A DNA stretch of 32,000 nucleotides from Nodosilinea sp. P-1105 (GCF_012911975.1 NZ_SMDQ01000033.1:13533-45532); one strand, 5' to 3'; shown: positions 14,203 to 17,771, numbered from the stretch's first letter. The notes: a model not told the origin generated them from the letters alone. Numbers and translations are program-made.

Positions 14203-14313
14203 CTAGTACCGCTACCCGGAATTCAAAATGCAAAGTTCAAGGTGGAAAATTGTTGCTGCGCAAGGATTTCAAGCATCCTGAACAGTAGGTTGATTTCTGC
14301 CTTGGTGTACTAG
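14203..14313 (+). mobile_element. MITE-like element, copy B (111 bp, same orientation as copy A)
   Basis: Differs from 12510-12620 at only 4 positions. Shares its terminal CTAG with the next element. Confidence 0.75.
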
Positions 14314-14543
14314 TACTCTGAGACGGAAATGGCACTGCTATTTCTGGGCGGCAAAACCCCTTTCACATAAGGGATTCCCCTTCTGCCTTCTGCCTTCTGC
14401 CTTCTGCCTTCTCCTAAGAAACAAAACCTAATCGATGCCAAAACACCCTGATTGTCGCCAAACTGGAAACAGTTTTGTTTCTTCCACTTTGTGCTCACCC
14501 CAGCGGGGTCAGTGGGAAGCTGCCTTCTGCCTTGCTGTACTAG
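14310..14543 (+). mobile_element. MITE-like element C (234 bp; CTAGTAC...GTACTAG; contains a heptamer array)
   Basis: The first ~80 bp and last ~24 bp are the reverse complement of the two ends of 17615-17771. The terminal CTAG supplies the stop codon of the histidine kinase (14540-14542, minus strand). Confidence 0.7.
14380..14414 (+). repeat. STRR-like heptanucleotide tandem repeat (CTTCTGC x4 + partial)
   Basis: Read directly: 'cttctgc cttctgc cttctgc cttctgc cttctcc'. Confidence 0.95.
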
Positions 14544-16036
14544 GCGCTGCTTGGGTGGGATACCGCTGGCAAGGTGAGGTCAAACTGGACGGCGGTGGGG
14601 GTGACCTGGGTCAAACGCAGATCGCCGCCGTGGGCACGGGCAATTTCCCTGGCCAAGCTGAGGCCCAGGCCCAGGCCGTCGGTGGTGCGGGAGGGGTCGC
14701 CTCGGTAGAAGCGGTCAAATAGGCGGGTTTGGGCGGCGGCAGTGAGGGGTTGGGCGGCGTTGGCGACGGTGACACAGACCTGGCCAGATTGTTGGCGACC
14801 CACGATCCGAATCCAGCCCTGGGGCAGGTTGTATTTGATGGCATTGCTGATCAGGTTTTGCAGCCCTTGAATCAGCAAATCGCGATCGCCCTGCACCCAC
14901 AGATCGCCCTCCACCGCCAGCGTCGTGGTCAAATCCGGGGCCAGCAGGGACAAATCCTCCTGCTGTTCCTCCAGCAGCGCCCCCATCGCCACCGGTTCTC
15001 GCCGCAGGCCCATCTGCCCCGCATCGGCCAAGGACAGCAGCAGCAGCTTGCGCACAATGCCGCCCAGCCGACTGACCTCATCCAGCAGGTGGCCCAGGGT
15101 TTGCTGGAGGGGCGATCCGGCCTCGGCCTGGTGCATGGCCTGTTCCAGTTCACCCTGGAGGATGGCGAGGGGCGTTTTCAGTTCATGGGCGGCATCGCCA
15201 CTGAAGCGGGAGGCTTGGTGAAAGCTGCGCTCTAGGCGTTCCAGCATGGCGTTGAAGGCGGCGATCAGGGGCTGAAATTCGCGATCGGCTCCGGCCTGGG
15301 GCACCCGCTGGTGTAGCCCCTGGGCGGTGACCTGGGTCACGGTGTGGCTGAGGGTTTGCAGCGGCGACAGCGCCCGCCCCGCCAGCCACCAGGAGCCCCC
15401 AGCCAGCAGGGCCAGGGCACCGGGAATGGTGAGCCAGTAGATGCGTAGCAGGGTGCCCATTTCTTGGTGGACGGCCTGGAGGCTGACCGCGATCGCCACC
15501 CGACCCAGGGGTGCAACCCGACCCACCACCCGCCAAGGGCCACCCGCCCCCGCCACGGTGACCGGCCCCAGGGTTTCCCGCTCTGGGGCCATGCCGCGCT
15601 GCCGCATGGATCGCTGGGCGTTGGGGGGCAGCCTGGGACGAGAGCCATGGCCCCCCAGGGCATCGGGCCAGTTCTCCTCTGGGGCAGCCTCTGCCGACCA
15701 GGCAAAGCCGGGATCCAGGACGGTCAGCGCTAGGTCGGGCGGCCAGTGGGGGGATTGGTAGCGCAGGGTTTGGCTGTGATCGATCATCACTAGGGCCACC
15801 GCCTCAGGATCCGCAAAGCCCATCTCCTGGGCCAGGGCTGCTTCGGGCGGTATCCAGGTTTCGCCATTGCGGGGGCGACCTGGGGGCGGCAGACGGTTGG
15901 CCAGTTGGGCATCGAGGCGTTCCAGCTTGGCCTGGTAGGTGAGCCAGCCCGAGAGTAGGGCAAACCCCACCAGCACCCCGCCCGCCAGAGCCGAGGACAG
16001 TAGCGCCAGCCGCAGCCGCAGGGAAGGAGACCTCAT
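14540..16036 (-). CDS. Sensor histidine kinase, CusS/CopS-like (two TM, periplasmic sensor, HAMP, HisKA, HATPase_c)
   Basis: H-box 'FSGDAAHELKTPLAIL', N-box 'LQNLISNAIKYN', G-boxes 'GLGLGLSLAREIARAHGG'. TM1 'LALLSSALAGGVLVGFALLSGWL', TM2 'IYWLTIPGALALLAGGSWWLAG'. 4-bp ATGA overlap with the upstream response regulator. Confidence 0.9.
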   Translation of the reverse strand: MRSPSLRLRLALLSSALAGGVLVGFALLSGWLTYQAKLERLDAQLANRLPPPGRPRNGETWIPPEAALAQEMGFADPEAVALVMIDHSQTLRYQSPHWPPDLALTVLDPGFAWSAEAAPEENWPDALGGHGSRPRLPPNAQRSMRQRGMAPERETLGPVTVAGAGGPWRVVGRVAPLGRVAIAVSLQAVHQEMGTLLRIYWLTIPGALALLAGGSWWLAGRALSPLQTLSHTVTQVTAQGLHQRVPQAGADREFQPLIAAFNAMLERLERSFHQASRFSGDAAHELKTPLAILQGELEQAMHQAEAGSPLQQTLGHLLDEVSRLGGIVRKLLLLSLADAGQMGLRREPVAMGALLEEQQEDLSLLAPDLTTTLAVEGDLWVQGDRDLLIQGLQNLISNAIKYNLPQGWIRIVGRQQSGQVCVTVANAAQPLTAAAQTRLFDRFYRGDPSRTTDGLGLGLSLAREIARAHGGDLRLTQVTPTAVQFDLTLPAVSHPSSA

Positions 16037-16716
16037 GGGCCAGCCTCCGGGGGCCGAAAGCGGTAGCCCACCCCCCGCACGCTTTCAATCCAGTGGGCGG
16101 CGGCCACGGGGTCGAGTTTTTTGCGGAGGCGCTGGATCGCCACATCCACCACGTTGGTGCTGGGGTTGAAGTCGTAGCCCCACACATGCTCCAAAATTTG
16201 GGTGCGGGTGAAGACCCGACCGGGCGATCGCATCAGGTATTCCAGCAGGTTAAATTCCTTGCTGGTCAGCTCCACCCGCTGGTCGCCGCTGGTCACGTCG
16301 CGGGTAATGCGATCCAGCCGCAGCGCCCCCACCGCCAGCACATTCTGCCGCTCCCCCTGGCTCCGACGCACCACCGCATGGATGCGCGCCACCAGCTCTT
16401 CCACAAAGAAGGGCTTGGCCAGGTAGTCGTCGGCCCCCAGATTTAGCCCAGTGATGCGATCGTCCAGCTCGTTGCGGGCGGTGAGCAGGATAATCGGCAC
16501 CGTTTGCCCCCTCTGGCGCAGGTCTTTGAGGATGGCCAGTCCGTCCTTTCCCGGCACCATAATGTCCAGCAGCAGCACATCGTAGGTGCGATCGCAGGCC
16601 CGTTCATAGCCCTCGTTGCCGTTGGCGCAGTGATCTACCACAAAGCCCTGTTCCCGCAGCCCCATGCTCACAAAGCTGGCAATTTTGGCCTCGTCTTCCA
16701 CCAGCAGCACATTCAT
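16033..16716 (-). CDS. OmpR-family response regulator, CusR/CopR-like
   Basis: 'MNVLLVEDE...VLLLDIMVPGKDG...LLTAR...GADDYLAKPF' receiver domain plus a winged-helix domain 'LTSKEFNLLEYLM...VDVAIQRLRKKLD...IESVRGVGYRF', closely parallel to E. coli CusR. ATG 16716 preferred over 16740. Confidence 0.9.
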   Translation of the reverse strand: MNVLLVEDEAKIASFVSMGLREQGFVVDHCANGNEGYERACDRTYDVLLLDIMVPGKDGLAILKDLRQRGQTVPIILLTARNELDDRITGLNLGADDYLAKPFFVEELVARIHAVVRRSQGERQNVLAVGALRLDRITRDVTSGDQRVELTSKEFNLLEYLMRSPGRVFTRTQILEHVWGYDFNPSTNVVDVAIQRLRKKLDPVAAAHWIESVRGVGYRFRPPEAGP

Positions 16717-16807: not shown

Positions 16808-16841
16808 AGCGGTAAGGCATCTGTCATCTTGGTTTGGCGTA

Positions 16842-17618
16842 ATGGAGGCTGTAGACCCCAGTGGAGGTTTCACTGAACCTATGGCACACCAACCTAAGGC
16901 GCGACAATCTAAGGCGCGACAATCTAAAACGCAACAACACCGTCGCTTAACCACATCCCTGCTGCTTGGTTCGCTGGGCCTGGTGGGGGTCGCCTTCCTC
17001 AATCCCGCCCAGGCTGAAACCATAATTGGACAACGGCTGGGCCAGGGCGATCGCCAAGCCCTCAATGCCCAGGCTGGCCCAGGGTGCAGCCGGGGACTCG
17101 GCACCCTTCTCGGTCAGGGGCGTGGCCAGGGACGCGGGCCAGGGCAAGCTCAGGGTCGAGGCCCAGGCCAGTCCCAGGGAAGAGGTCAACGGGGTGCCCA
17201 CCTGGCTGAAGCCGCCGCCCAACTGGGAGTGACGGAAGACGCCCTCAGATCTGCCCTGGGGATACCCGCCGAACGGCCCCAGCGGCCTGACCTGGCCACC
17301 GCCGCCGCCCAACTGGGCACCACCGAGACCGAACTGCGGGACTCCCTTTGCAATGCCATACGCGAACACCGCGAAAGCCGTCAGCCGGGCACCCCCGGTA
17401 GCCCGCCGAACTTCACGACCCTGGCCCAGCAGTATGGCGTTAGCGAGGCTGAATTTCGGCAGATTATGGGTATTCCCAACCGTCCCGACCTGGCCGCCGC
17501 CGCTGCCCAGTTGGGGGTAACAGAGGAGGCCCTGCGGGAGGCCCTGCAATCAACCCACAGGGGACGTGGCCCTGGGAGTGGCCCTAACCGTGGCCCTGGA
17601 CGGGGGCTAGGGCGCTAG
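16842..17618 (+). CDS. Secreted repeat protein of unknown function (4x 'LAxAAAQLGVTExxLRxAL' motif flanked by Gly/Arg/Gln-rich tracts)
   Basis: Signal peptide with twin-Arg-like n-region 'HRRLTTSLLLGSLGLVGVAFLNPAQA|E'. Four repeats: 'AEAAAQLGVTEDALRSAL', 'ATAAAQLGTTETELRDSL', 'TTLAQQYGVSEAEFRQIM', 'AAAAAQLGVTEEALREAL'. GRGPGQ-type low-complexity stretches. Alternative start ATG 16881. The stop codon lies in the terminal CTAG of element D. Confidence 0.7.
   Translation: MEAVDPSGGFTEPMAHQPKARQSKARQSKTQQHRRLTTSLLLGSLGLVGVAFLNPAQAETIIGQRLGQGDRQALNAQAGPGCSRGLGTLLGQGRGQGRGPGQAQGRGPGQSQGRGQRGAHLAEAAAQLGVTEDALRSALGIPAERPQRPDLATAAAQLGTTETELRDSLCNAIREHRESRQPGTPGSPPNFTTLAQQYGVSEAEFRQIMGIPNRPDLAAAAAQLGVTEEALREALQSTHRGRGPGSGPNRGPGRGLGR
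16894..16938 (+). repeat. 15-bp tandem repeat (2 perfect + 1 degenerate unit) in the 5' part of the secreted-protein ORF
   Basis: 'ctaaggcgcgacaat ctaaggcgcgacaat ctaaaacgcaacaac', encoding KARQS-KARQS-KTQQH. Confidence 0.9.
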
Positions 17619-17771
17619 TACAGCAAGGCAGAAGGCAGAAGGCAGAAGGCAGAAGGCAGAATCGGTCTCCTGCTTCCAATACTCAACATACAAGGCAGAA
17701 GGGGGATCCCTTATGTGAAAGGGGTTTTGCCGCCCAGAAATAGCAGTGCCATTTCCGCCTCAGAGTACTAG
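17615..17771 (-). mobile_element. MITE-like element D (157 bp), inverted relative to element C
   Basis: The reverse complement begins 'ctagtactctgaggcggaaatggcactgctatttctgggcggcaaaacccctttcacataagggatcccccttctgcctt' (2 mismatches vs 14310-14390) and ends '...ttctgccttgctgtactag' (as at 14520-14543). Confidence 0.7.
17628..17661 (+). repeat. STRR-like heptanucleotide tandem repeat (GCAGAAG x4 + partial), complement of the 14380-14414 unit
   Basis: Read directly: 'gcagaag gcagaag gcagaag gcagaag gcagaa'. Confidence 0.95.

Follow-up and report, generated by a model that had tools for sequence, protein, structure and literature searches.

A family of CTAG-targeting miniature elements around a two-component gene module in Nodosilinea sp. 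P-1105

Introduction

In a 32,000-nucleotide stretch of the Nodosilinea sp. P-1105 genome (GCF_012911975.1 NZ_SMDQ01000033.1:13533-45532; hereafter the window), a sensor histidine kinase (HK) gene, a response regulator (RR) gene and the gene of a secreted repeat protein lie between two inverted copies, C and D, of one MITE (miniature inverted-repeat transposable element). A sequence-only reading of this DNA had taken the arrangement for a composite mobilisable unit whose flanking elements donate the stop codons of the two outermost genes, and had offered preferred insertion at CTAG stop contexts as its alternative. Here, we describe the locus, compare it with related contigs and argue that C and D, both from a single MITE family, inserted separately at CTAG stops and are not the arms of a mobile cassette, a reading to which we assign a probability of about 0.8. 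The contigs compared are those encoding an identical RR, from soda-lake metagenomes and the metagenome-assembled genome (MAG) GCA_003550805.1; these and all other loci cited carry numbers with the prefix L.

Architecture of the locus

The module between C and D consists of exactly three genes, as had been read from the sequence. The HK gene (14540-16036, minus strand) encodes 498 residues with HAMP, HisKA and HATPase_c domains (Pfam) and ends in gcC-TAG. It is preceded on the same strand by the gene of a 235-residue OmpR-family RR (16033-16740), and the repeat protein of 258 residues is encoded on the plus strand (16842-17618), ending in cgC-TAG. The latter carries a signal peptide and four AAAQLGVTEEALREAL-type repeats joined by Gly/Arg/Gln-rich linkers, and it matches no Pfam family above threshold, giving faint HTH-like matches only. 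Its orthologues adjoin the RR-HK pair in L037 (6459-7157, 68% identity) and in L039 (6301-7050, 58% identity), where the three-gene module is conserved at other loci and without MITEs. The repeat protein is a conserved divergent partner of the RR-HK pair and perhaps acts with the two-component system in the periplasm, as a partner not yet characterised. The HK gene has a GC content of 67.5% versus 58% for the window. We considered and rejected this as a sign of foreign origin, because its orthologues likewise lie 4.5-7 points above their surroundings and the high GC content is thus intrinsic to the kinase gene.

Element C (14310-14543, 234 bp) ends on its right in a CTAG (14540-14543) that contains the stop codon of the HK gene, and element D (17615-17771, 157 bp), inverted relative to C, begins with a CTAG (17615-17618) that contains the stop codon of the repeat-protein gene; no strand is assigned to these or the other elements. 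The outer arms of the two, 14306-14389 and 17692-17775, are 98% complementary over 84 nt, and their inner ends, 14520-14543 and 17615-17638, are fully complementary over 24 nt, which bears out the near-identical arms and the common inner end of about 24 bp that had been noticed before. Copy B (14203-14313, 111 bp) is joined to C through one CTAG (14310-14313), as also noted earlier. Beyond what the sequence-only reading contained, we found copy A inside a DUF362 gene (12510-12620, 111 bp counting both CTAG copies; 96% identical to B), element E, which runs from CTAG to CTAG over 64 bp (17768-17831) and is joined to D through the CTAG at 17768-17771, and a further CTAG-ended element at 23281-23548 with the ends CTAGTGCAGCGTCAAG...CTTGACAGATCA, whose right CTAG reads CGAG in the window. 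Two long direct repeats, taken up below, were likewise new.

A, B, C and D belong to a family whose terminal inverted repeats follow the pattern TAC(A/T)..AGGC.GAA. The element proper can be written as TACAGCAAGGCAGAA...TTCTGCCTTGCTGTA, of which TACAGCAAGGCAGAA is the best-conserved end, and cyanobacterial copies sit at CTAG. Within the window the terminal repeats are imperfect, with about 15-16 of 22 positions matching between the two ends of an element (A/B, C/D). The left ends, TACCGCTACGCGGAA in A and B and TACTCTGAGACGGAA in C and D, are degenerate forms of the family repeat; at C, the left end reads TACTCTGAGACGGAAAT, also degenerate, and the right end is the consensus TACAGCAAGGCAGAA as its reverse complement. 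The ends of E are degenerate as well (TACATTTATTTGAAAG and, as reverse complement, GACTGAGAGGAAAT), and we infer that E is a relic element. The sole open reading frame (ORF) in A, B, C and D is a 62-residue frame with a GTG start in C. The heptamer CTAGTAC occurs 10 times in the window where 1.2 occurrences are expected, a number that none of 100 shuffled sequences reached, and nine of the ten are element borders. Copy B is present and 100% identical in L001, L002, L005, L006 and L009, and E is kept in L001 and L003-L006. We also asked whether C and D could be the halves of one split element, and ruled this out since neither lacks an end and the CTAG pairs of the two are distinct.

A size below about 600 bp, lack of coding capacity, inverted ends, dispersed copies and target duplication place these elements in the widespread MITE superfamily, in agreement with their first description as MITE-like members of one family. 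A heptamer array had been described in each of C and D, and both arrays are there: (CCTTCTG)x4.9 at 14379-14412 in C and (AAGGCAG)x5.3 at 17625-17661 in D (TRF). The terminal repeat itself contains the heptamer AAGGCAG (TACAGC-AAGGCAG-AA), and the arrays repeat this heptamer in tandem, keeping the phase of the terminal repeat. In C the array is split by a unique segment of 108 nt. Copy number differs between strains, with 4.9 copies in C of the window versus about 12 in L002, and 5.3 copies in D versus 4.3 in L001, L002 and L004. The arrays have probably grown as slippage expansions of the AAGGCAG of the terminal repeat.

A four-base target duplication

Copy A gives the most direct view of how the family inserts. 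It splits the DUF362 gene (12447-13513, plus strand; Pfam DUF362, E 1.4e-55) into two ORFs, 12447-12620 and 12626-13513, and removal of 107 bp, that is A and one CTAG, restores a single open frame. This state exists in nature. Contig L001 lacks copy A, has a single CTAG at the site and encodes an intact DUF362 protein of 319 residues. Its empty site, ...GCAAACGTCC-CTAG-AGCAGG..., faces CTAG-TACC...GTGTA-CTAG in the window (CTAG, 103 bp, CTAG), so that the pair is a textbook case of a filled and an empty site, and copy A is polymorphic for presence and absence between strains.

The same duplication is found across the family. The ends of 36 complete elements, taken from other genomes and metagenomes, were paired, and the 4-bp flanks outside TAC...GTA match exactly in 25, against a chance of 1 in 16 per element. 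The matching flanks are GTAG and CTAC (seven elements each), CTAG (six), ATAG and CTAT (two each) and CTAA (one). A central TA is present on both flanks in 34 of the 36, the exceptions being ATTG in L060 and CGAG in L110, on one flank each. A duplication of TA only was considered and rejected: the outer bases vary among copies yet match between the two flanks of one copy, and since they co-vary in this way, the duplication comprises 4 bp (NTAN). A transposase acting on these elements would cut a TA-centred NTAN with a stagger of 4 bp and duplicate its target, which in cyanobacteria is almost always CTAG.

One consequence is that elements pile up. Two CTAGs are regenerated per insertion, one at either border, so that later copies can land there and n stacked elements share n + 1 CTAGs. 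The junctions of B with C and of D with E are of this kind, and they are the two GTA-CTAG-TAC junctions of the window. Six further loci with elements sharing one CTAG were found in four other genomes, named as Desulfococcaceae HSG8 (four of the loci), Heteroscytonema and Nostoc. At the element 23281-23548, further MITEs are inserted at its end in L003 and L001.

Stop codons at element borders

Both outer genes of the module end in C-TAG directly followed by TACAGCAAGGCAGAAGGCAG, and the observation that each stop lies within the terminal CTAG of an element was correct. The conclusion drawn from it, that the elements donate the stops, does not hold. Because the duplication comprises 4 bp, as the empty site of A and the flanks of 25 of the 36 elements document, the gene-proximal CTAG belongs to the gene and owes nothing to the element. 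Orthologues of the kinase in L037, L038 and L039 (67-77% identity), which have no MITE nearby, end in gcCTAG, acCTAG and gtCTAG, and hence the target predated the insertion, at least for the kinase. The sequence-only reading had counted against a mobile unit the occurrence, in relatives, of the same three genes at the same locus without elements and with the same gene ends; element-free modules and C-TAG kinase ends were found, although at other loci and not at the same one. Its alternative of CTAG stop contexts as favoured insertion sites is the part that gained support.

Why two insertions should coincide with stops may follow from where CTAGs occur and which of them tolerate an element. The window has 67 original CTAGs, 48 within genes, 15 between genes and four at stop codons, so stop-codon CTAGs make up about one fifth of the tolerated targets. 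Insertion into the intragenic majority would destroy a gene, and copy A in DUF362 is such a case, still polymorphic. Harmless targets would be intergenic CTAGs or C-TAG stops, and insertion at a stop would leave the gene's own CTAG, and with it the stop, intact. The HK and the repeat-protein genes would each have provided a C-TAG site at the outward-facing ends of the conserved three-gene module. Two of the three harmless occupied sites are stop codons (P about 0.11 by chance), which is unremarkable. Other genes that end at the terminal CTAG of an element are ArgZ (L002), a peroxiredoxin (L024), a membrane protein (L018) and ORFs in L021 and L015.

Two observations stand beside these. The gene of a TIR_2-domain protein (18272-19009) ends in C-TAG without an inserted element. 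It overlaps an ORF of 892 residues containing 9.3 tandem repeats of 126 nt (42 residues), whose homologue in L004 carries NB-ARC, and this region (18272-21615) is the most divergent between strains, at 85-89% identity. In Leptolyngbya sp. PCC 6406 (L016, 6630-6650), a solitary 21-nt element end, CCTTCTGCCTTGCTGTACTAG, with no element body upstream makes up the final seven codons (PSALLY) of an ABC-transporter ATPase gene together with its TAG stop.

Which transposase moves the elements

The elements would be non-autonomous DNA transposons moved by a DDE transposase supplied in trans. We lean slightly towards an IS630-like enzyme. The pointer comes from L093, where an element contains a 55-residue ORF fragment that extends into the final 31 or so nucleotides of the element's right end, a junction resembling that of a deletion derivative. 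The fragment matches HTH_32 (E 1.3e-4), and its only database relative is P0121, 96 residues on a 508-bp contig without an element end. P0121 and all ten further relatives have NF033545 (IS630 family) as their best match, one of them scoring 152.9 bits and so exceeding the curated cut-off of 100. At its change of reading frame, the P0121 contig has a T6A4 run, which resembles a frameshift site typical of IS630-family elements. The search for a cognate transposase proposed earlier thus yielded an IS630-type fragment but no full-length autonomous copy.

Other sources gave little. Viral contigs searched for family ends returned no matches, and plasmid BLAST with four terminal-repeat variants returned nothing relevant. 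The insertion sequence (IS) beside D in L002 was considered as a partner and rejected. It belongs to the IS1634 family, lies 2 nt past the CTAG of D, has the ends CTCCCGGTTCGC and makes a 5-bp duplication in a Tolypothrix homologue. In L002, which is from MAG GCA_003550805.1, it occupies the start of the contig (1-118), which ends inside it, with the ends CTCCCGGTTCGCTCATTTTT and the N-terminus METPLTVITERVDDIPLLLAQ. Four-base, TA-centred duplications are otherwise made by DDE families of the IS5, IS701 and IS1380 type, one of which may instead supply the enzyme.

Spread of the family

Species-representative genomes (596 Gb) were scanned with the 19-mer TTCTGCCTTGSTGTACTAG, for which about nine chance matches were estimated. 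The scan gave 30 loci, and these are clustered, with eight in one Leptolyngbyaceae MAG and nine in Desulfococcaceae HSG8; others lie in Prochlorothrix, Nostoc, Heteroscytonema, Mastigocoleus, Leptolyngbya PCC 6406 and a soda-lake Leptolyngbyaceae MAG. One copy in HSG8 (L028) is complete, with identical ends of about 30 nt, CTAGTACACCAAGGCAGAAGTTCGTTACCCC. A metagenome scan with TAGTACASCAAGGCAGAA gave at least 120 loci. Among the matches listed, most come from one AT-rich organism (25-42% GC; L040-L159, mostly Ga0272440), whose contigs mostly break at the element and whose targets are NTAN rather than CTAG. The end of 18-19 nt recurs in many cyanobacteria and is multi-copy in HSG8, and in the AT-rich organism the terminal repeat is extremely abundant. 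The presence of the family in this organism and in HSG8 suggests that it has spread across phyla. Neither a paper on Thiomargarita MITEs (PMC4853749) nor that on the Microcystis genome (PMC2779907) yielded a matching family.

One contig of 2.5 kb, assigned to the bin of Desulfonatronospira sp. CSSed11_143 (L009, NZ_PWSL01000525.1), matches the window from 11900 to 14412, where the direct repeat X1, A, B and the beginning of C lie, and is probably cyanobacterial DNA placed in the wrong bin.

Does the module move?

Twelve contigs encode an identical RR and HK. In these, no empty site, second copy or second location of the C-D unit was found, and the inner end of C as well as D are present wherever the contigs reach them. 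D is always followed by E, the direct repeat X2 and the TIR_2 gene, and in L002 the IS1634-family element is inserted in E. Identity among strains is close to 100% over a tract that begins between about 12.0 and 13.2 kb, ends at about 19.2 kb and covers DUF362, B, C, the three genes, D, E, X2 and the TIR_2 gene. Its flanks drop to 76-97%, on the ArgZ side in L002 and on the NB-ARC/TPR side in L001, L003 and L006. The tract extends past 14.3-17.8 kb on both sides, and C and D are therefore not its bounds. As for the tract itself (about 12000-19200, versus L001-L006), a recent recombination import, a sweep or chimeric metagenome contigs could each have produced it.

In this context, L004 is instructive. 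The left arm of its C comes from another subfamily, like that of the ArgZ-adjacent MITE of L002, and the DNA beyond it is unrelated, so that the breakpoint lies inside C. Such a junction agrees with recombination among copies of the MITE, or with a chimeric assembly, and does not agree with transposition of a composite unit.

Several points weigh against the account preferred here. Strains with C missing but D present, or the reverse, were not found, so that the independent insertion of the two elements, like the order of events, is inferred and has not been seen. With 98% identity, the outer arms of C and D would also suit a recent shared source, gene conversion or a history in common. The link to IS630 comes from one junction in one metagenome contig, and the autonomous element was not found: across some 1 Mb of retrieved loci, no two ends spaced at 0.7-3.5 kb have a transposase between them. 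Finally, a 4-bp duplication is atypical for IS630, which duplicates TA (PMC2170065).

Among the alternatives, the elements might act mainly as recombination substrates, their 84-nt inverted arms having arisen or been kept because they bring about inversion or rearrangement of the module, MITEs driving the differences in context between strains and gene conversion keeping C and D alike. L004, with its left arm from another subfamily and its wholly different flank, can be read in this way, as can L001, where the context left of DUF362 differs, and L005, which is circularly permuted through the X repeat. No contig, however, has the module inverted relative to the TIR_2 gene, and the variant junctions, which stem from metagenome contigs built of short reads, could be chimeras formed at repeats during assembly. 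Moreover, recombination would explain consequences of the elements and not their origin, and we regard it as an unlikely account of the locus.

The composite transposon of the sequence-only reading, in which a trans-acting transposase would use the outermost ends of C and D to move the 3.46-kb three-gene segment, is quite improbable. It draws on the bracketing of exactly three genes by related inverted elements with nearly identical outer arms, on the near identity of the segment among strains with differing flanks and on the precedent of a MITE-bracketed moved unit, the blaPER-1 integron of Acinetobacter johnsonii (PMC3934969). Yet the unit is at the same place in all 12 contigs, and the presence/absence comparison proposed for it turned up no empty site among the related contigs that reach C and D. 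The shared tract has other limits than the unit, L004 breaks inside C and not at its outer end, and relatives have the module without MITEs, with the HK stop already a C-TAG. The flanks do not help either, as all four junctions of C and D read CTAG as in every element and are uninformative on a unit-wide duplication.

A related possibility is that the C-module-D unit, or the tract of about 7 kb and about 100% identity, is being handed on among cyanobacterial lineages that share the soda lakes and whose neighbouring genes are in places as much as about 24% different, the CTAG-targeting MITEs acting as the mobilising or recombining ends. We consider this very doubtful; if true, it would be a natural MITE-mediated transfer of a chromosomal signalling module.

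The folding of the elements bears on the last alternative. RNA of C, B and D (at 17640-17771) has z-scores of -1.6, -1.1 and -0.2 relative to shuffled sequence, a scan from 13.5 to 18.3 kb placed no terminator-like site inside the elements, and an Rfam scan of the window returned only a tRNA and no family on them. Beyond B lies a bidirectional intrinsic-terminator hairpin (14113-14157, no strand assigned) with a stem of about 20 bp, an A-run on one side and a T-run on the other. Its minimum free energy is -28.2 and -27.6 kcal/mol (z -6.9 and -5.1), and none of 200 shuffles folds as well. It is probably the original terminator of the HK operon, and removal of B and C would put the HK stop 46 nt from it. 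That the elements are domesticated repeats of the 3' untranslated region, selected just after stop codons as terminators or RNA-stability elements and ubiquitous in that role, is hardly credible, for although several members of the family, in different genomes, stand precisely at a stop codon, C, B and most of D fold no better than shuffled sequence, a strong genuine terminator stands outside them, copy A is intragenic and most copies elsewhere lie away from stops.

Other repeats in the region

The direct repeats X1 (11980-12111) and X2 (17896-18027), 132 nt long and 99% identical, flank a 5.9-kb segment with DUF362 and its copy A, B, C, the module, D and E. The circular permutation of L005 through this repeat could reflect an assembler loop, a tandem duplication or an excised circle. 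Nine base pairs past the end of the X1-X2 homology lies a perfect 44-bp palindrome without spacer (12120-12163, CCAGGTGAGGGGTCAGCAGATT|AATCTGCTGACCCCTCACCTGG), within an ORF of 109 residues without Pfam match. A hairpin-forming insertion of 69 nt (17829-17897) with the motif CCCAGGCAGAGCCTGGG is found in X2 and is absent from X1; similar repeats of the GTTCCCAGGCAGAGCCTGGGAAC type occur in the AT-rich metagenome organism (L081) and beside MITEs in HSG8 (L013).

A second repeat family is present at 10891-10982 and 24834-24918, as hairpins of ACGGTGA/TACCGTG heptamers. A stop codon is found no more than about 10 nt from each copy, namely that of the ArgZ-like gene (8783-10888) and that of an ORF at 23626-24828, which also ends in C-TAG.

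Relation to known systems

Comparable systems include IS630 itself, Correia, RUP and Stowaway-type MITEs and, in cyanobacteria, STRR arrays, which are tandem heptanucleotide repeats. The family resembles the IS630/Tc1-mariner group and its MITEs, for example ISY100 of Synechocystis, in its TA-centred target, its short inverted ends and its small non-coding copies amplified in trans (PMC2170065), and the transposase fragment in L093 may add a likeness to the IS630 group. It differs in duplicating 4 bp (NTAN), as compared with the 2-bp TA shown for ISY100 (PMC2170065). The strong preference for CTAG in cyanobacteria is shared with IS630 and with IS870, as far as the latter is described in a later paper citing Fournier 1993, and would fit an IS630-like enzyme (PMC2170065; PMC13630536). 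According to the same citation, IS870 and ISMt1 insert into 5'-CTAG-3' and the TAG of the target serves as a stop (Fournier et al. 1993, cited in PMC13630536). There, the target TAG ends the transposase ORF of the element itself, whereas here it is the existing stop of a host gene, preserved by the insertion.

For bracketed genes, the closest likeness is the blaPER-1/Tn402-like integron of A. johnsonii, which is flanked by two 439-bp MITEs and resembles C and D in that two copies of one MITE bracket genes (PMC3934969). In that case, movement was deduced from flanking evidence and from an ORF into which the unit had inserted as a whole (PMC3934969). C and D differ from it, as they have no second context, no empty site and no flanking duplication that would be informative, and the MITEs do not mark the limits of the tract shared by the strains.

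Among MITEs of cyanobacteria, Nezha (Zhou et al. 2008, as cited in PMC10969869) and MaeMITEa-h of Microcystis (PMC2779907), and likewise the STRR arrays, are similar as abundant small intergenic inverted-repeat elements and heptanucleotide arrays, a likeness by description and not by sequence. Unlike this set, the CCTTCTG array described here continues the terminal repeat of its own element and varies in copy number between strains.

Conclusions

The elements form a new MITE family of an ordinary kind with some unusual details, and the result leaves the general understanding of mobile elements unchanged. What stands out is a TA-centred duplication of 4 bp weakly linked to an IS630-type transposase, near-identical terminal repeats in cyanobacteria and Desulfobacterota, and strain-variable heptamer arrays that grow out of the terminal repeat. 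One rule, the regeneration of a 4-bp CTAG target at both borders of an insertion, accounts for stop codons that seem borrowed from a repeat as well as for repeats that stand end to end. For the annotation of cyanobacterial genomes this is of practical use, since such elements mark the 3' ends of genes, break short-read assemblies and can be mis-binned.

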